This document shows positions 21,137 to 27,890 of a DNA stretch of 64,000 nt, piece by piece. Source of the stretch: a virus; IMG/VR virus record IMGVR_UViG_3300013132_000031, positions 1-64,000 of that record, one strand, 5' to 3'. A program made the translations under genes and the position numbers. The notes below the pieces were generated by a model. The model made no database searches and was not told the DNA's origin. It saw only the letters and a list, made by a program, of their open reading frames with translations. Position 1 is the stretch's first letter; every line of letters begins with the position of its first letter.

Positions 21137-22192
21137 TTATTCCTCCACAGCGTCGGCTGTACTTACCTCGGCCTTTTGATTGCCAAAATCTGCCATCACA
21201 CGGTCCAAGCACCCGTCTTCATTTGACTCCCAGGCCTTGCGAAACTGCTTGATGATTTCGCCATCGCTGGTGGTAAAAGTCAATCTGTTGCCGTCTTTTT
21301 TCAGCATGCCTTTTTTCTCAGCCAGGTCCACCAGGCCTGAGTAGGGATTCATGCCTGTTTCATAGGGAATTTTGACCTGCACACCTTCAAAGGGTTTGGC
21401 ATAGCGTGTTTTCATGACCTTGCAGGCACTGCGTATGCCCATGACTTCCGACACTTTGTTGCCGTCCTCGTCCTCTTTGAGTTTGAGTTTTTTCATGGCC
21501 ACCACAATCGAACTGGCATAGATAAAGCCTTGCCCACCACTGATCTTGTCATCGGGGTCAAACATGTCCTGGCTGGCATAAGTGTGATTGGTACAAACCA
21601 AGCCCACATTGTAGGAGCCAAACATGTTCACACAGTTACGAACCAAGGCTGTCAGTGCTTTGGGTTTGCGACCCAGATCGCCCTTCATCTCGCCAGCATC
21701 AAACTGGTTCACATCAGTGGGAGTCAACAACATGCCCAGTGAGTCAATCACAAACATGACCTTGGGACGTTCGCCATCGGGCAAGGCCTTGTAGTCGCTC
21801 ATGAATGTACTAATGGTCTTGGCCACGTCGTCAATCATGGCCATGCTCAATTTCAGCAATTTGCTTTCTGATGTATCTACACCCAAGGCCCGGAGCCAAT
21901 CTTCATCCAAGGCATTTTCCGAATCAATCAGCACCACAAAAATGCCTTGCTCTTGTGCGTTCTTGATGATGTTGCCTGAACAGATGTAACTTTTACCTGC
22001 TCCAGACTCACCAGCAAACACAGTGACCTTGCCCAAGGGAATGCCACGATTGAAATCGCCAGAGATCAAATAGTTCAAGGCATAGTTACCTGTAGAGATC
22101 CAGTCTGTGGGATCATTGAAGCCAATTGACAATCCGTCAATGCTTTTTGTTATTTCTTTACGGAATTTGGAAACGTCGAAAGGTTTTCCCAT
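21137..22192 (-). CDS. uvsX: UvsX/RecA-like recombinase
   Basis: ISTGNYALN, GESGAGKS, IDSENA, VIDSLG, NHTY and SGG. Confidence 0.95.
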   Translation of the reverse strand: MGKPFDVSKFRKEITKSIDGLSIGFNDPTDWISTGNYALNYLISGDFNRGIPLGKVTVFAGESGAGKSYICSGNIIKNAQEQGIFVVLIDSENALDEDWLRALGVDTSESKLLKLSMAMIDDVAKTISTFMSDYKALPDGERPKVMFVIDSLGMLLTPTDVNQFDAGEMKGDLGRKPKALTALVRNCVNMFGSYNVGLVCTNHTYASQDMFDPDDKISGGQGFIYASSIVVAMKKLKLKEDEDGNKVSEVMGIRSACKVMKTRYAKPFEGVQVKIPYETGMNPYSGLVDLAEKKGMLKKDGNRLTFTTSDGEIIKQFRKAWESNEDGCLDRVMADFGNQKAEVSTADAVEE

Positions 22193-22217
22193 GTATCACC
22201 TATGATAATAATTTGAG

Positions 22218-22242
22218 ACACAGAGGGAGCACCCCTCTGTGT
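22218..22242. other. Intergenic hairpin between gp32 and uvsX
   Basis: ACACAGAGGG-AGCAC-CCCTCTGTGT with no clear U tail. Confidence 0.55.
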
Positions 22243-22254
22243 GATTGCTGTCAA

Positions 22255-23250
22255 TTACTTGGCTTGACGGCTACGGATCATGGCCAGGATGTCCTGGGCA
22301 TTTTGACCTGAAGCGGCAGGCCGGGCCACAGGGGCTGATGCTGCAGGAGTGTCGTCCTCGTCAAAGTCGCTGACCGGTGCAGGTGCTGCCACTTTGAGTG
22401 CAGGCCGGGCTGCTGGTGCAGGAGTGTCCTCATCCGCATGTGCGGCTCCGGCACCACCAGGTGCTTGCACACCAGCAGGACGGAAGTATTGACCCCAACG
22501 TTCTGTGTCGTATGGTTGTCCATCCACTGATGCCTCAAACATCTCTTTGATCACCTTCAACTCAACGTCGCCTGGTTTCTTGGGCAGGAATGTGCTCAAG
22601 TCAAATGCACCATGTGTGGCAATTGCAGCCTGTTCTGCTTCTGTGAGTGCTGACTCTTTACGTGCCCACTTTGAAGTTGAGTAGTCAGCGTAGCCACCTT
22701 TGGCAGTTTTGGTGACGCGGAAGTCCAGGCCACGCAGGGTGTCTGTGGGCATTTCTTCCAGTTCAGGATCCATCAATGCGCCCTTGATAGTGGCAAAGAT
22801 TTGTGGTCCAATGATGAAACGTCTGATGGGGTTTTCTGGAGCCTTGTCGTCGGCCAAGGGATTCTCACGCACAAAGCCTTGGAAAATGTAACTGCGTTTC
22901 TTCCAGTATTTGCGACCCATTTCTTCAAGGCTCTTGTCCTTGAACCAGGTGCGTACTTCGGCCAAAATCGGACATGCTTCGTTCCACATTTCCACACAGG
23001 GTACTTGTACGTAGACCTGTTTGGATTCCATTTCACCTCGGATGCCAGCGAAAGGCAGCCGAATCATCTGTCGTTCTTGCCAGAAAAATGTGTTTTTGGT
23101 GTTTGCGTCGGGAAGGAATCGCAGTGTTGCACTTTGCCCTTCTTCCATGTTCCAGTGTGGGTAGATCGAATTGTCTCCACCTGTTTGTCCGCCGCCTTTG
23201 TTGCTTTCTGCTGCCTGTAGTCTTGCTCTAATCTCCGCCAATGATGCCAT
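22255..23250 (-). CDS. Single-stranded DNA-binding protein (T4 gp32-like)
   Basis: ATLRFLPD, CPI, ADYSTSKW, an acidic Ala/Pro tail ending DILAMIRSR, and position next to uvsX. Confidence 0.85.
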   Translation of the reverse strand: MASLAEIRARLQAAESNKGGGQTGGDNSIYPHWNMEEGQSATLRFLPDANTKNTFFWQERQMIRLPFAGIRGEMESKQVYVQVPCVEMWNEACPILAEVRTWFKDKSLEEMGRKYWKKRSYIFQGFVRENPLADDKAPENPIRRFIIGPQIFATIKGALMDPELEEMPTDTLRGLDFRVTKTAKGGYADYSTSKWARKESALTEAEQAAIATHGAFDLSTFLPKKPGDVELKVIKEMFEASVDGQPYDTERWGQYFRPAGVQAPGGAGAAHADEDTPAPAARPALKVAAPAPVSDFDEDDTPAASAPVARPAASGQNAQDILAMIRSRQAK

Positions 23251-23266
23251 AGTTTTTCTCCTTTAA

Positions 23267-23384
23267 GTTGCCTATGTATGTTGCCTATCTAATGTTTAGA
23301 TCTTTTGTTGCCTGTGCCACAAAAGAAAAAGCGCAAACACTAGAGTAGTATATGCGCTTTTGTCTACTGTGTCAAGAGTATTTA
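23267..23384 (-). promoter_or_regulatory. gp32 control region: late TAAATA, sigma70 promoter, inverted repeat and 3x AGGCAAC
   Basis: TAAATA at 23379-84; TTGACA(23370-75)-17-TATACT(23347-52); AAAAGCGCA/TGCGCTTTT inverted repeat; AGGCAAC at 23267, 23280 and 23307. Confidence 0.75.
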
Positions 23385-23386
23385 TG

Positions 23387-26293
23387 TCATTTGATCAAAG
23401 CCAGTGATTTTATTCTTGCCAAAAGTGCATCGCCGTCTTTGGATTCATAGTATGCGCCAGTCATTGCACTGTTTGAGTTTATGGGGTCGTCGTTGCCTTC
23501 CGCCACATCTTGCTCTGGTAATACACCTTTGGGACCTGCCATGGGTTTTGTTTGAATTCGCTTCTTAATCTGACTTTGTTTTGTTTTAGTCCAAGAATCA
23601 TCTGGTGTGCCAAAAATATCATCTAACTCGGTTTCTGCACGGCGAAGTCTTTCCATGTCTTTGTTGGACCATTGACGATCTTTTGCACTACCTTCCGCCA
23701 TGCCTTGCTGTTTGGCCGTCTTAAACGTGCCAACACCAGTATTCATATTGTATTGACCTATCAGTTTATCGCCTATCATGGCAACACTTTTTACATGTCT
23801 GCCATCTTCGGTGCGTTTCTTGATGATCCTGACCTGAGCCGGGTGATAGGCATCTTTGACATTATCTACCCATTCACTGTGTTCGACACCTTGAGTGACT
23901 TCGTTCAAGGAACCTTCCGCCACACCTTCGTCTATTTCGGGTTCATAATACCAGCCCATTCCAGGATCATTGTCGCCGTTCTTTGCAGGGTTATCAAATT
24001 TGAAATAACCAATCTGAATCAGACCGTTAGGAGCATCTTGATCAAACCAATATCCTTTGAATACACCTGTCTTTTCATCAAAGTCTTCTCGGTCAAACCA
24101 ATTGGCTTCAAACTGCGAAAAGTAATCTATGCTACGACGATAATGTTCTGGCTTGGGATATTTGTAAAAAGAATCATCATCTGGGCCGTCATTGCCGCCC
24201 CAAGGATCGCGACCTCGTCCACCTGGCCCGCGAGGTGTGTTGCCGCCGCCGCCAGCAGGAGCAAATTCATTCAATTTGCCTTCGCCCATGCTGTAGGGCA
24301 TGCCCACTGCACCACCATCTTCATACATGCTGCCACATTCTGCCAATCCGTGTTCTGGGCAGTATTGACCTTCCATGGTCATGTTGCAAGAGCCTTCGCT
24401 CACAGGCATGATCTGTGGTGCAATTAGGTTTTCATCTAGGCCAATGTCTTGAGCAAAACGGTCTGCTACCCATTCATAGGGATCACCGGTTCGGGCTTTC
24501 TTTGTGCCATAGGGCATGTCATCAAAGTAGTAGTCATATAGTGCATCGTACAAATCGTTGTCCATGTCGCCAGATTGCATGAATTTTCTCACTTCGGGAC
24601 CAAAGCGGTCCTGGATGTGGTCCAAGGTGTTGCCTGTGGAATCTGTGAGCACACCTTCGCTTACTGGCACGCCGGCGTGACGCAGCATGCGAGTCAAATC
24701 TGCTTCTACGAATGTGGCTGTGTTGTCGCCTTCCGCCACACCTTGCTGATTTATTCTTTTGAATACTAAACTGGCTACACGATTATAAATTGTTTCTGGA
24801 ATATTATTCTTGACAAAATAACGATCTAACGCACGATATACGGTACTGTCATAAGCCATACCACGTAATCTTTCTAGATTTTTTCCAGTTGTTAACTTGT
24901 CAGCAATCTCCATGGCCTGTGATGAGTCATCAGTGTTCGCCACAGTTCCTGGTGAAGTAGTATCTCGTGATTTGCTAGGGAACTTCAAATTAACGCCTTC
25001 CGCCACACCTTGCTCTTTTATTTCAGGTGCAGTGTCTTGGTCAACATCAGCAGGTTCTGATCGAGTGCTTTCGGGAGTTTGAATGCCCAGTTCGGCCAGT
25101 CTGCGTTGCACATCTGAATCCGCCCAGATGTTGGCTCTTGGATCATTGTCAGCCAAGTCGTTTAGGATGTCAAACAGCTCGTCATCGCCAACCAAATCAT
25201 ACAACTGTTCAGTGGCATTCATGGCGTCGGCGCCTACAATGAGTTCGCCGGTCATGAGCTGTTGTAGTTTTTCATAAGCTTCGGGAGTGTCGGGCAAGGC
25301 CCAAGTGCCTTCGCTCAAACGGTTCATGTAATTTTCAAATATTTCGGCTTCTTTCATTTTGGTTCCTTGCTGTTGTATCTTGGCTAAAGTTGGCAATGCT
25401 GCTTCAATTCTAGTGTCCAATGTTTGTTGCACAAACATGTTTTTTAAATCTTCAACCAGACTCTCTTGTTGATCAATTTGATCTGGTGCCCACGACTCAA
25501 AGTAGGTGTGATATCCACGTGACGAAGACAGTCGTTTTAGATTTTCTTGAAGGCTGCGATAGTAATGTGCAGCCGATTCTACCAGTTCTTGTGTGATGCC
25601 TTCATACACATGATGTTGCTTGGCACGATTGAATCTTGACAGCACTGACAGCTCTTGAACCATTTCGTTGATATGGTTGCCGCGCACATCATAGGGGCGG
25701 CCACCTTGTCGCACATGTTCCAACATGGCACGACCGTGTATGAGACGATTGCTCTGCAGTTTGAATCGTTCTCCGTCAGCAGTTTCAATAAAAATGCTTT
25801 CAATGTAGCGATAGCGTTTGTCATCTTCGCCAATTATTTTGTTGTGTTTGATCAGTATTCTGGCCTCTGTGGGCTCGCCTATAAAGCTCTCACGGCGGCT
25901 GCCATAGTAGCCTTCAAACAGGCCTTCTTTTACAGCAGCCTGCCCAGCCAATGAGTGTTTGAGTCTGCTGAGATTTTGAGGGCTAAAGGTGTATCTGTGT
26001 GTTTGAGCCAACTTGCGCATTTGATTCAAAAACGCAAACCATTCGTCTTTGTCTTGGTCTTGCATGCTGCGACCAAGATTGTCTCCAAAAAACAACAGCA
26101 GCTCGTTGTCATCGCCTATCACTGCCACAGCAGATCCATAGTTGTTGCCGCTGGTGCTGCGATAGTCAAAACTTATGATATTGGCATCAGCAGGACCACT
26201 GCTTTGGCCACCTTCGTCCCGATATTCAGGATCAAAGTTGTTTGTGACCAGCAGGTCCGCCAGTTCTTGGGAGATTGAATTTTCTTGGGCCAT
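23387..26293 (-). CDS. Large acidic modular probable virion/head-internal protein
   Basis: Likely start MAQENS at 26293 behind TAAATA (26301-06). Five (Q/E)(G/D)(V/M)AEG repeats; C-terminal LARIKSLA. Follows the terminase. Confidence 0.65.
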   Translation of the reverse strand: MAQENSISQELADLLVTNNFDPEYRDEGGQSSGPADANIISFDYRSTSGNNYGSAVAVIGDDNELLLFFGDNLGRSMQDQDKDEWFAFLNQMRKLAQTHRYTFSPQNLSRLKHSLAGQAAVKEGLFEGYYGSRRESFIGEPTEARILIKHNKIIGEDDKRYRYIESIFIETADGERFKLQSNRLIHGRAMLEHVRQGGRPYDVRGNHINEMVQELSVLSRFNRAKQHHVYEGITQELVESAAHYYRSLQENLKRLSSSRGYHTYFESWAPDQIDQQESLVEDLKNMFVQQTLDTRIEAALPTLAKIQQQGTKMKEAEIFENYMNRLSEGTWALPDTPEAYEKLQQLMTGELIVGADAMNATEQLYDLVGDDELFDILNDLADNDPRANIWADSDVQRRLAELGIQTPESTRSEPADVDQDTAPEIKEQGVAEGVNLKFPSKSRDTTSPGTVANTDDSSQAMEIADKLTTGKNLERLRGMAYDSTVYRALDRYFVKNNIPETIYNRVASLVFKRINQQGVAEGDNTATFVEADLTRMLRHAGVPVSEGVLTDSTGNTLDHIQDRFGPEVRKFMQSGDMDNDLYDALYDYYFDDMPYGTKKARTGDPYEWVADRFAQDIGLDENLIAPQIMPVSEGSCNMTMEGQYCPEHGLAECGSMYEDGGAVGMPYSMGEGKLNEFAPAGGGGNTPRGPGGRGRDPWGGNDGPDDDSFYKYPKPEHYRRSIDYFSQFEANWFDREDFDEKTGVFKGYWFDQDAPNGLIQIGYFKFDNPAKNGDNDPGMGWYYEPEIDEGVAEGSLNEVTQGVEHSEWVDNVKDAYHPAQVRIIKKRTEDGRHVKSVAMIGDKLIGQYNMNTGVGTFKTAKQQGMAEGSAKDRQWSNKDMERLRRAETELDDIFGTPDDSWTKTKQSQIKKRIQTKPMAGPKGVLPEQDVAEGNDDPINSNSAMTGAYYESKDGDALLARIKSLALIK
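23496..25015 (-). repeat. Five dispersed 20-bp direct repeats, consensus SASSAAGGTGTGGCGGAAGG
   Basis: Copies at 23496-23515, 23691-23710, 23913-23932, 24729-24748 and 24996-25015. TGGCGGAAGG is invariant and all copies are in the same frame. Confidence 0.85.
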
Positions 26294-26303
26294 AGTGCAA
26301 TAT

Positions 26304-27890
26304 TTACCTAAGTATAGAAATGAACGGCATTGGATCAATGTGATTGTCTGTGTGATCTTTGAGATGTGTGTCCAGTTCTGCATGATAAGTCTGCAGCAAC
26401 ATCAGCATGCGGACCGCCAACAACGAGCTCATCACCAAATCGTCTGTTTCTCCAGGTTTGGCAGCATAACTGCCGCCGTTGGCCACAAACGTTTTGAGTT
26501 CACTGATCAAGGGTCTGCTGTACAGCTTCATGCGTCCAGATTCTACTAAGATTTTTAACTTGCTGCAGGCAGTGAGTTTGGCTTTGTTTGTGGTGTTGAA
26601 TCCTTTACGAAATCTACGTCCTGTAGTGCCTGTTACTGAATTGTCGCTGAGAAAATACCCTCGGATGTTTTCTTCTCCGTACTCGTTTATGCTGATCAGG
26701 GCGGCTTCGCCAATGGTATTGTTTTCTACTGAGTAGTATATCTTTTTGTCATCTTTGGTAATTTCATACAATTCATTCACAATATCAGCCAACAGTTTGA
26801 CCTGTGTAGGAATATCTGTTCGGTTGTGGCGCCATTCAGCCACTTGCTCTGTGGTGTCTGCTTCGAACACTTGTATGGCTGCAGGGTCGCCGCCGGTGCC
26901 CAGGCTAGGGTCTAGAGCTACAATATACATTTTGTCTGGGTTTGGTGTTTTGTACCAGCGCACTTGTCCTGTGCGGCGATTGGGTTCTACCCCTTCCAAG
27001 TCCAGCAGTCGGGTGGGAGCAATTAGTGTTTCATCATTGATAACAAATTCACATTCCATTTCTCGACGGAATCGATCTTCGCCCAGTTGTGCCAGCTGTT
27101 CCAGTCCCCATTGTTCATCACGATCTGGGTGCTCGCGCCAGTTGCTTCTAAATGCGCGGAATCCATTGATACCTAACTTTGTGGTGTTGCCATGTTCGTC
27201 TTGAGTCTTGTTAGCACCTTTCCACAAATACGCAAATTGATCTTCGTCTGAGTTGGGGGTACTTGTAATAATAGCCTTACCACCTGTGGCCAAAGTAGGG
27301 CTGATAGAAGTCCAAAATTCTCGAGCAATTGTGGGCCTTACAAACGCAAACTCGTCAGCGTACAGGAGTGAAATACTCATACCCCGTCCAGTCGTTTCAG
27401 TCGTGGTCTGCGCCACAATACGAGATCCGTTTTCAAACTCTAGACTGTTTTTGTTGTAGCTGGTGGCACCAGCACGTATGTGATTGGGGCACAATTCATA
27501 GGCATAGCGGATACGTTGCATGATCTCCTGTGCGCCGGTGTATTTGTGTGCGGCTACTAGAATAGTTGAATCTGGTACAAACATTGCATACCACAACAGG
27601 TAGCCAGCAGCTGAGGTTGACTTGCCTGTTTGTCGAGGCATCAGACTGATACTGTATCTGTAGTTGTGATAGGTTTCAATCAGTCGAGTTTGATACTCAA
27701 ATGGATGATACAACATCTTGCCGCGTGTGGGATGCTGAATATTAAAGAAGTTGTCCATAAAGTACAATGGACCATTCACAGGATCTGCACAGGCAGCAAA
27801 CTCCAGGAGTTCTTGTTCGGTGTATATTTCTTTCCGGTGCGGTGCTTTGACCAACACTGTTTCTAAATTTTTATATGGCGGCAAAATCAT
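26304..27890 (-). CDS. terL: Terminase large subunit (T4 gp17-like)
   Basis: PRQTGKST, LYADEFAFV, ITSTPN, ALDPSLG and DDLVMS. Confidence 0.95.
   Translation of the reverse strand: MILPPYKNLETVLVKAPHRKEIYTEQELLEFAACADPVNGPLYFMDNFFNIQHPTRGKMLYHPFEYQTRLIETYHNYRYSISLMPRQTGKSTSAAGYLLWYAMFVPDSTILVAAHKYTGAQEIMQRIRYAYELCPNHIRAGATSYNKNSLEFENGSRIVAQTTTETTGRGMSISLLYADEFAFVRPTIAREFWTSISPTLATGGKAIITSTPNSDEDQFAYLWKGANKTQDEHGNTTKLGINGFRAFRSNWREHPDRDEQWGLEQLAQLGEDRFRREMECEFVINDETLIAPTRLLDLEGVEPNRRTGQVRWYKTPNPDKMYIVALDPSLGTGGDPAAIQVFEADTTEQVAEWRHNRTDIPTQVKLLADIVNELYEITKDDKKIYYSVENNTIGEAALISINEYGEENIRGYFLSDNSVTGTTGRRFRKGFNTTNKAKLTACSKLKILVESGRMKLYSRPLISELKTFVANGGSYAAKPGETDDLVMSSLLAVRMLMLLQTYHAELDTHLKDHTDNHIDPMPFISILR

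Follow-up and report, generated by a model that had tools for sequence, protein, structure and literature searches.

We analysed a window of 64,000 nucleotides (nt), the first 64 kb of the 108-kb IMG/VR virus record IMGVR_UViG_3300013132_000031 (here G000; completeness estimate 31%), which comes from an uncultured freshwater T4-like jumbo phage of ~350 kb. One gene on its minus strand encodes a fixed protein backbone carrying small, mutually unrelated, in-frame modules, and these modules are separated by a short linker, typically QGVAEG, that is conserved as DNA. The sequence comparisons support the view that this motif bounds exchangeable in-frame modules, and they make cassette exchange at the linker very probable. 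We also consider it reasonably probable that the product is a capsid-associated carrier whose modules are swapped at the linker and released by the head protease.

An earlier note, made from the letters of this DNA, had described five copies of a 20-nt repeat in the gene. We recovered all five 20-mers exactly as first noted: their core, TGGCGGAAGG, occurs five times in the window, always on the minus strand, at 23496, 23691, 23913, 24729, and 24996. A search of the 108-kb record for more copies found none beyond these five. Shuffled controls contained a mean of 0.02 copies, and none of 100 shuffles reached five. The 20-mers encode E/Q/D-Q/E-G/D-V/M-A-E-G, and their E|G boundaries fall at gene nt 1386, 1653, 2469, 2691, and 2886, giving spacings of 267, 816, 222, and 195 nt that are indeed all multiples of three. 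When the segments were compared with one another by BLASTP within the protein, each matched itself alone, in agreement with their description as mutually unrelated. The Ala-Glu codons were also found to be frozen as claimed: all five motif copies use GCG GAA, and the gene's other four Ala-Glu pairs have GCC or GCA GAA. GCG makes up 6.3% of the alanine codons genome-wide, and arithmetic from codon frequencies puts the chance of GCG in five of five copies at ~1e-6.

Other parts of that description had to be revised. The 816-nt segment, taken as one module, consists of two units, a conserved core (M2a) and an accessory module (M2b) with the left edge GEGKLNE|F. The statement that two modules open with LNE was right about the openings (GSLNE starts M3 and KLNE starts M2b) but not about the boundary, because the left edge of M2b is not a QGVAEG repeat. 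The gene start, placed at 26383 in a long frame spanning 23387–26383, was moved to the ATG at 26293 (MAQENS...), the start used in the database gene call P0002 and in the homologs; the protein begins MAQENSISQELADLL... and continues into a conserved domain of 430 amino acids (aa). M1 occupies site A, between the N domain and M2a, and M2b, M3, and M4 occupy site B, between M2a and the C-terminal tail (Table 1). The 267-bp module M1 is AT-rich as stated: its GC content is 39.0%, and 29% at third codon positions (GC3), versus 46.8% and 46% in the N domain and 50.8% and 53% in M2a. GC3 is also low in M4 and M2b, compared with 46–53% in the backbone parts.

Table 1. Parts of the cassette gene (window coordinates; GC3, GC content at third codon positions; pLDDT, predicted local distance difference test score; a vertical bar marks the boundary after Glu)
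Feature	Position	Strand	Description
Cassette gene	23387..26293	-	968 aa plus stop; virion-protein backbone with cassette tail
N domain, conserved carrier	24995..26293	-	aa 31-463 of the long frame; 50-97% identical in >100 listed homologs
Linker repeat 1	24996..25015	-	GAGCAAGGTGTGGCGGAAGG = E-Q-G-V-A-E|G; N/M1 junction
Accessory module M1	24728..24994	-	89 aa, helical, GC3 29%; helices at pLDDT about 57-85
Linker repeat 2	24729..24748	-	CAGCAAGGTGTGGCGGAAGG = Q-Q-G-V-A-E|G; M1/M2a junction
M2a, backbone core, not a cassette	24275..24727	-	about 150 aa; cysteine motif CNMT.EG.YCPEHGL.EC; helical part pLDDT 88-94
Accessory module M2b	23912..24274	-	121 aa; opens KLNE|FAPAGGGG; GC3 36%
Linker repeat 3	23913..23932	-	GACGAAGGTGTGGCGGAAGG = D-E-G-V-A-E|G; M2b/M3 junction
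Accessory module M3	23690..23911	-	74 aa; opens GSLNE
Linker repeat 4	23691..23710	-	CAGCAAGGCATGGCGGAAGG = Q-Q-G-M-A-E|G; M3/M4 junction
Accessory module M4	23495..23689	-	65 aa, GC3 31%; ends ...KPMAGPKGVLPEQDVAE
Linker repeat 5	23496..23515	-	GAGCAAGATGTGGCGGAAGG = E-Q-D-V-A-E|G; M4/tail junction
Conserved C-terminal tail T, backbone	23390..23494	-	35 aa, ...GDALLARIKSLALIK; in nearly all homologs

An independent Logan contig (19.7 kb, k=31), whose run is possibly the source of this DNA, reproduces the whole stretch of the gene without a difference, and contigs from other lakes span single junctions. Therefore, the arrangement is not an assembly chimera. All sampled words were also present in a run of a different study, which may likewise be a source of this DNA.

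We then compared the gene with its family. A homolog search returned 2083 homologs of 608–1144 aa; 80 of the 185 viral loci encoding a relative were kept, and the parts of the query were mapped on 183 distinct family sequences. A fixed backbone runs through the family, consisting of the N domain (about 430 aa), the M2a core (about 150 aa), and the C-tail (35–40 aa). The minimal members (608–623 aa) are exactly N-M2a-T, with M2a directly after N, and added material in the other homologs lies mostly at sites A and B and at times inside M2a. The module content of orthologs proved as variable as the earlier note had supposed: 37 relatives with N domains 92–97% identical display at least 13 site-A contents and 19 architectures. 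Turnover of the modules far outpaces divergence of the carrier. M1 and M3 are unique to this gene among the 183 family members, and M2b is missing from most of them.

In close relatives, a cassette resembling ribosome modulation factor (RMF; PF04957) lies between the N domain and the core (P0003 aa 433–476, P0073 aa 437–480, and P0036 aa 507–550). Its score is sub-threshold (E about 4e-5, 24 bits, cut-off 27.9), with 43 of the 53 profile positions covered. Judged from this sequence likeness, such a unit within a virion polyprotein would be a candidate factor for shutting off translation. Glycine zippers are also present in relatives.

The C-tail shows a DNA-level conservation of its own. In 24 distinct DNA contexts encoding the exact peptide GDALLARIKSLA, its codons hardly vary: at synonymous sites of the tail (...EGDALLARIKSLAL; 23390–23494 on the minus strand; homologs L006–L085), AGA, ATA, GCA, and GCT were each found in 24/24 contexts. 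The C-tail is frozen at the DNA level too, and frozen codons are therefore not peculiar to the linker. Possible roles for the tail are to target or anchor the protein, to serve as another recombination anchor, or to overlap a downstream signal.

The modules themselves are mobile. As the earlier note had anticipated, modules of this gene turn up in different genes and at different positions: M1, M2b, M3, and M4 all recur in non-orthologous phage proteins. A relative of M1 (85% identical in aa, 90% in nt) resides in a non-orthologous open reading frame (ORF) with a cytidylyltransferase-like head and is bounded there by AVAE|G and QGVAE|G. M3 has a 75% identical (aa) relative in an unrelated 903-aa ORF, between GMAE|N and QGVAE|E. 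Relatives of M2b with 55–72% identity were found at 7 viral loci, mostly in other proteins, one of which has a Zeta_toxin-type kinase domain. M4 is 97% identical in P0061, where the N domain is 66% identical, and is also present in P0003; its position is before M2a in P0004, P0061, and P0105 and after M2 here and in P0003. Relatives of M4 occur at 33 viral loci, and in complete relatives of the phage the M4-like module sits in a gene other than the N-domain ortholog. The M4 family has 9 members in 7 neighbour contexts. Outside this gene, the edges of M1, M3, and M4 again carry x-[VM]-A-E, with G, N, or E as the next residue, and the start of M2b is a site of the L-N-E type.

We read the breakpoints from the more distant module copies, not from the 97%-identical copies of M4 in P0003 and P0061. 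The nucleotide homology of M1 (90% over 194 nt) stops 3 nt past the linker. That of M3 runs from gene nt 2475 to 2692, starting 6 nt beyond one linker boundary and stopping 1 nt beyond the following one, and the M4 homologies begin within one linker and end 3 nt past the next. As to whether indels start and end at the repeat, DNA homology of module copies ends at the motif, but not all inserts are linker-bounded. Within linker-bearing ORFs, 26% of the ends of internal blastn high-scoring segment pairs lay no more than 20 nt from a linker versus 3.6% for random positions (the pairs are not independent), with peaks at both linker edges. Splitting 310 proteins at the linker yielded 811 segments in 422 families, with a median internal module of 91.5 aa; 24 of the 162 internal module families were found in two or more neighbour contexts.

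Several further observations concern these arrays. The last 57–70 nt of M4 (23495–23570, minus strand; ...KPMAGPKGVLPEQ-GVAEG) have 96–97% DNA identity in the otherwise different arrays L103, L107, and L142; the peptide PKGVLPE also terminates other modules, and this junction element is longer than the 20-mer. The ORF L245:1198-3600:+ combines a Zeta_toxin/AAA_33 kinase (E 1.7e-16), a TAT-signal-like stretch, and an M2b relative, and has no [VM]AEG linker. GNAT acetyltransferase domains occur in the linker- or module-bearing ORFs L156:3029-7474:+ and L186:10711-14457:-, and L242:1933-3390:+ shows a weak likeness to cytidylyltransferases at its head. The linker-bearing polyproteins include a second carrier family (L137:4139-6520:-, L151:236-2887:-, and L164:5795-8269:-), whose members have in common an N-terminal helical unit of ~60 aa (DHE..MA...L....L..WV..KI..A.DYL..V..YL), which could be another capsid-targeting domain. 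In L137, one short module (SKYPWLD.PRK.P...EKDVAEG) is present three times.

The linker is conserved across phages as DNA. The exact 17-mer CAAGGTGTGGCGGAAGG was found at 120 or more viral-contig loci. Among the matches listed, it has 162 occurrences, 161 of which are read as QGVAEG in the longest local ORF; two or more copies are present at 32 loci, and only 8 of the 125 ORFs that bear the 17-mer are homologous to the cassette gene. The frame being kept in 161 of 162 listed occurrences, the peptide is therefore under selection. The 17-mer-bearing proteins are strings of small unrelated modules with the linker between them. A control on bacterial genomes (596 Gb) also returned the 17-mer at least 120 times, as single hits with a median GC content of 65%, of which 42 of the 120 listed were in the QGVAEG frame. 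In the lake samples, other contigs match the 18–25-nt repeat alone, at two or three places and with different spacing; 'joints' reported in lake runs turned out to be other arrays of this kind and were discarded. The reading of these runs leaves aside the parts of the stretch without cover in runs X3–X5.

Over 427 distinct sites, the linker consensus is K-[EKQ]-Q-G-[VM]-A-E|G-[SD]. In the notation of protease sites, P3 is V at 337 sites, M at 70, L at 12, and I at 8, P4 is G at 310, and P5 is Q at 271 (A-E-G is fixed by the search pattern [VMLI]AEG). We tallied codons at 52 distinct G[VM]AEG sites in loci found by protein similarity, hence unbiased for DNA. The synonymous conservation that the earlier note had proposed to set against codon usage is clear: Ala is GCG at 41/52 sites (background 8%), Val is GTG at 32/35 (background 28%), and the preceding Gly is GGT at 40/52 (background 44%), while the 4-fold sites of conserved M2a residues vary freely, with three to six codons. 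The earlier note had counted freely varying motif codons against its own idea; at most sites GCG is held, but the dialects PPVAEG and QDMAEG use GCA or GCC. Concordance of the Ala codon within an ORF was 0.81 versus 0.57 in shuffled data (p about 0.0005; some rows are near-duplicates). This pattern looks like the signature of concerted evolution of a recombination joint.

We wondered whether the linker peptide is also a protease site. T4 gp21 cleaves behind the Glu of (L/I)-x-E, a type of site with which targeting peptides terminate (...I-A-E in the T4 capsid targeting sequence, CTS). The linker fits hydrophobic-x-Glu, with V or M at P3, A at P2, and E at P1, and L-N-E and P-V-S-E sites are also present in the protein. 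The phage encodes a protease that matches PF03420 (E 2.1e-23, 78.8 bits) at G000 75110–75562, in an ORF at 74972–75610 between the portal and the scaffold/capsid genes; a gp21-type protease is found in 4/5 large relatives. The motif [LIVM]AE occurs 0.82 times per 100 aa in the scaffold, 0.73 in the acidic core protein, and 0.70 in the cassette gene versus 0.146 genome-wide, i.e., it is 5–6 times denser. The N domain matches PHROG 13484, 'virion structural protein' (E 1.3e-10). It is also 27% identical to gp278 of Pseudomonas phage PA5oct, which is annotated as a virion protein by electrospray ionization tandem mass spectrometry (ESI-MS/MS), adjoins the large terminase, and is without a cassette tail. 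Judged by motif, density, and gene content, cutting of the linker peptide by the gp21-type protease is plausible, and we lean towards it. In T4, gp21 cleaves core and internal proteins and removes targeting propeptides, and phiKZ-type prohead proteases cut at S/A-X-E (PMC9026906).

Taken together, these results suggest the following scheme. The gene product would be a capsid-associated carrier with a fixed backbone (N domain, M2a, and C-tail) and in-frame modules of ~65–120 aa at two hypervariable sites. Modules would be gained, lost, and swapped by ordinary homologous recombination between co-infecting relatives, through UvsX-type machinery and with the 18–25-nt linker as microhomology; repeated exchange or gene conversion would keep the linker DNA uniform. 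UvsX and gp32 are encoded by the phage (PHROGs), and short conserved motifs acting as shuffling joints have a precedent in T4-type phages (PMC2839356, PMC4122927). The protein would then enter the prohead, where the gp21-type protease would cut after the Glu of V/M-A-E, and also at L-N-E- and P-V-S-E-type sites, so that the modules are freed as separate small internal head proteins. More speculatively, some freed modules may be injected along with the DNA and have an early role in the infected host, by analogy with T4 IP1-3 (PMC12373910) and with the enzyme and RMF-like units of related arrays in mind. The anti-defence function that the earlier note suggested for the modules is speculative as well.

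A number of observations weigh against this scheme. Some site-A and intra-M2a inserts have no linker boundary, and the freezing of the C-tail codons belongs here as well. Nucleotide-level selection for another function may fit the linker pattern as well as concerted evolution does. Contigs of four lake runs contain no recombinant or excision joint, although rare variants can be hidden there. With Val or Met at P3, the linker is unlike the Leu/Ile of the T4 consensus, and the likely maturation site of the capsid protein, I-L-E|N by alignment to T4 gp23, is not x-A-E|G. The carriers of related modules include enzyme-headed ORFs whose products may or may not lie in the capsid, and the genes around two other polyprotein genes do not form a clearly structural neighbourhood. 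The overall quality of the structure model is poor (see below). Finally, the phage is uncultured, and cleavage and packaging are steps that we infer.

Could the protein function uncleaved? It would then be a beads-on-a-string virion protein, the linker would be a flexible or structural joint, and the DNA conservation would come from module exchange. N4 virion RNA polymerase and some polyvalent proteins are packaged unprocessed (PMC5512222), a distant fold match links the protein to a 'large polyvalent protein-associated domain' protein, and Val/Met at P3 departs from the T4 L/I rule. We nevertheless regard an uncleaved product as unlikely: a hydrophobic P3 before an invariant A-E-G core (invariant as set by the search pattern) would be unusual for a mere spacer, [LIVM]AE is densest in the scaffold and the acidic core protein, two classic head-protease substrates, and a gp21-type protease is encoded. 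The frozen nucleotides might instead serve at the RNA or translation level, as a pause for module folding at the rare GCG or at the Shine-Dalgarno-like AAGG...GGAAGG, or as an mRNA processing site, the peptide being secondary. Such a role is in keeping with a synonymous constraint well beyond that of neighbouring conserved residues, with the rarity of GCG (6–8% of Ala codons), and with the constant position of the motif between folding units. It is quite improbable, however, given that the PPVAEG and QDMAEG dialects and GCA-only genes keep the peptide and change the codons, that the frame is almost always kept, and that GTG, GAA, and CAA are common codons, a 'slow codon' thus accounting for one of six positions. 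Nor does a start codon consistently follow the motif, which ruled out internal translation starts after it.

An integron- or shufflon-like mechanism, with a dedicated site-specific recombinase acting on the 20-nt repeat, would be a literal reading of the word 'integron-like' in the earlier note, and the direct, in-frame, DNA-conserved repeats bounding cassettes would suit it, as would repeat dialects that are more alike within a gene than between genes. Yet the repeat has no obvious dyad symmetry (judged by eye), and the same arrangement is present in two runs of different studies, both possible sources of this DNA. Neither tyrosine (PF00589) nor serine (PF00239) recombinases gave a match in G000, G001, G002, G003, or G005 (this record and four large relatives, three of them 99–100% complete), while in control genomes PF00589 matched 14/14 and PF00239 12/14. 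The excision variants proposed with this mechanism did not appear either: no joint with matching flanks was found in the contigs of the four lake runs, and contigs drop rare variants. With no recombinase in these genomes and no excision joints in these contigs, we abandoned this mechanism as very improbable. We also reject chance, codon bias, or an assembly chimera at a common 20-mer. A 20-nt repeat common to many genes in one metagenome could mislead an assembler, and the exact 17-mer does occur at least 120 times in bacterial genomes; but those hits are single, in GC-rich DNA, and mostly out of frame, five copies were observed against 0.02 in shuffles, GCG in all five is a ~1e-6 event, and the 19.7-kb contig and the single-junction contigs of other lakes speak against a chimera.

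The carrier with exchangeable, protease-released modules that we favour resembles several known systems. Like the T4 internal proteins (IPI, IPII, IPIII, and Alt), its modules would be small, diverse proteins loaded in the prohead core and freed by the prohead protease (PMC9026906, PMC3012670, PMC12373910), and the repertoire of T4 internal proteins (IPs) likewise varies strongly between related phages. T4 IP1-3 are injected and block GmrSD-type restriction (PMC12373910), and conserved short DNA elements at T-even IP loci were proposed to mediate shuffling (Repoila et al. 1994, as cited in PMC2839356 and PMC12373910). However, T4 IPs are separate genes, each with an N-terminal 10-aa targeting peptide, whereas here modules are fused behind a 430-aa carrier and the conserved element is a coding inter-module linker common to many genes. 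The modules are without an N-terminal CTS of their own, no T4 IP family match was found in Pfam or PHROGs, and the sequence showed no homology to T4 IPs or to the CTS. The inner-body and ejection proteins of phiKZ, 201phi2-1, and SPN3US (proteases gp175 and gp245) are also head proteins of jumbo phages, cut after Glu at S/A-X-E, packaged, and ejected with the DNA, and their propeptides carry redundant cleavage sites (PMC9026906, PMC5694885, PMC10052503). What they lose are propeptides; published descriptions give them neither chains of unrelated exchangeable modules nor a DNA-conserved linker, and they belong to another lineage, unlike the T4-type protease, capsid protein, and terminase found here.

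Polyvalent proteins (Iyer et al. 2017, PMC5512222) are large and have 2–15 domains in variable architectures; many lie among virion genes, are predicted to be packaged and delivered with the DNA, and are sometimes proteolytically processed. The adjoining large terminase gene, the 19 architectures among 37 close relatives, and the GNAT and kinase enzyme domains in related linker arrays are points of likeness. Polyvalent proteins have known conflict domains, and often their own peptidase, whereas this protein has none of those Pfam domains and would rely, if at all, on a separate head protease and on a uniform DNA-conserved linker.

Motif-mediated recombination is also known from the 'His-box' of T-even tail fibres. 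In promoter/stem-loop (PeSL) cassettes, variable modules are flanked by short conserved DNA motifs, which have been put forward as recombination joints for modular shuffling in T4-type phages (PMC2839356, PMC4122927). PeSLs, however, are intergenic promoter/stem-loop elements that move whole genes, whereas here an in-frame coding linker of 18–25 nt moves sub-gene modules and is probably also a protease site. The resemblance to integron cassettes (an array of unrelated, repeat-bounded units with rapid gain, loss, and reordering) is formal only, since there is no integrase, attC-like folded site, promoter-driven separate ORF, or excision product here. The closest systems in working are the T4 internal proteins and the processed proteins of phiKZ and SPN3US, and the architecture is nearest to that of polyvalent proteins; by the tests made, the gene is a member of none of them. 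It is set apart by the cargo fused in frame behind a carrier and by one uniform, DNA-conserved linker common to many genes. Our literature search found no prior description of the GVAEG linker or of jumbo-phage cassette polyproteins; subscription journals lay outside its coverage.

If the linker is cut, the gene would provide plug-in loading of varied small proteins into the capsid. A module that has recombined into place between two linkers would need no promoter, start codon, or targeting peptide of its own to be expressed, packaged, and released, which would explain how the tail turns over while the carrier stays 92–97% identical. The linker would also point to where injected counter-defence or take-over proteins may be, with 422 module families in this sample, most of them without a known domain, and it would offer a rule for designing foreign proteins to be packaged in phage heads, as the T4 targeting peptide did. 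Even without cleavage, nature here provides a clear example of an in-frame junction, conserved as DNA, that mediates sub-gene domain shuffling across many genes, relevant to protein evolution and to annotation of the 'hypothetical' fraction of jumbo-phage genomes. Tentatively, and with more doubt than confidence, one may imagine a genome-wide in-frame cassette system in abundant freshwater jumbo phages. Hundreds of modules (zeta-toxin-type kinases, GNATs, and the RMF-like unit among them) would be shuffled among several capsid-loaded polyproteins, with the linker DNA as joint and its peptide as the cut site that frees injected, early-acting proteins, an integrase-free, coding-sequence analogue of the integron.

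Domain and fold searches on the protein gave little. Pfam found no domain at E 0.01 or better, and M1, M2b, M3, and M4 matched no known family in Pfam and ESM Atlas searches. A Foldseek search of the PDB returned nothing at E 0.001 or better, and the ESM Atlas fold search yielded no usable result (template-modelling score, TM, <=0.30). A BFVD fold search retrieved uncharacterised phage relatives, plus the one distant match to a 'large polyvalent protein-associated domain' protein. The AlphaFold model of the full-length protein is of low quality (mean pLDDT 52), and we therefore make no fold claim for any module. In this model, linkers appear as segments with pLDDT <50, between the confident helical units M1 and M2a.

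The gene lies directly downstream of a T4-type large terminase gene (26304–27890, minus strand), with a gap of 10 nt, and upstream of genes for a gp32-like single-stranded-DNA-binding protein (SSB) and a UvsX-like protein (neighbours were typed by Pfam and PHROGs). The head module lies outside the window (G000 72.6–78.6 kb) and comprises the portal, an acidic 275-aa protein, the Peptidase_S77 gp21-type protease, the scaffold, and a gp23-type capsid protein. Related genomes judged complete span 340–360 kb, and the phage was detected in lake and estuary metagenomes. The T4-type head genes, the size of the complete relatives, and the lake and estuary occurrence therefore identify the source given at the outset. 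Its nearest cultured relatives are PA5oct and Rak2-like phages. The whole gene had no blastn match in 50,697 cultured phage records, and by tblastn the N domain alone matched these, at 24–29% identity.

The order large terminase, virion protein, (SSB), UvsX-like at 21137–27890 (minus strand) is that of Pseudomonas phage PA5oct, where the equivalents are gp280 (terminase), gp279 and gp278 (structural), and gp274 (UvsX-like). This common gene order ties the freshwater lineage to PA5oct and the Rak2-like jumbo phages. Two further ORFs of the record, both outside the window and on the minus strand, lie near the head genes. A 252-aa ORF beside the major capsid gene (G000:C1:71774-72532) has a GIY-YIG homing endonuclease-like start and repeated K-G-K-P-type motifs (judged by eye); in T4-type phages, local gene conversion can be driven by homing nucleases. 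A 213-aa protein (G000:C1:70469-71110), encoded immediately downstream of the head module, consists mostly of Pro/Gln/Thr-rich tandem repeats (QPTQQPEPTQQPAQPA...).

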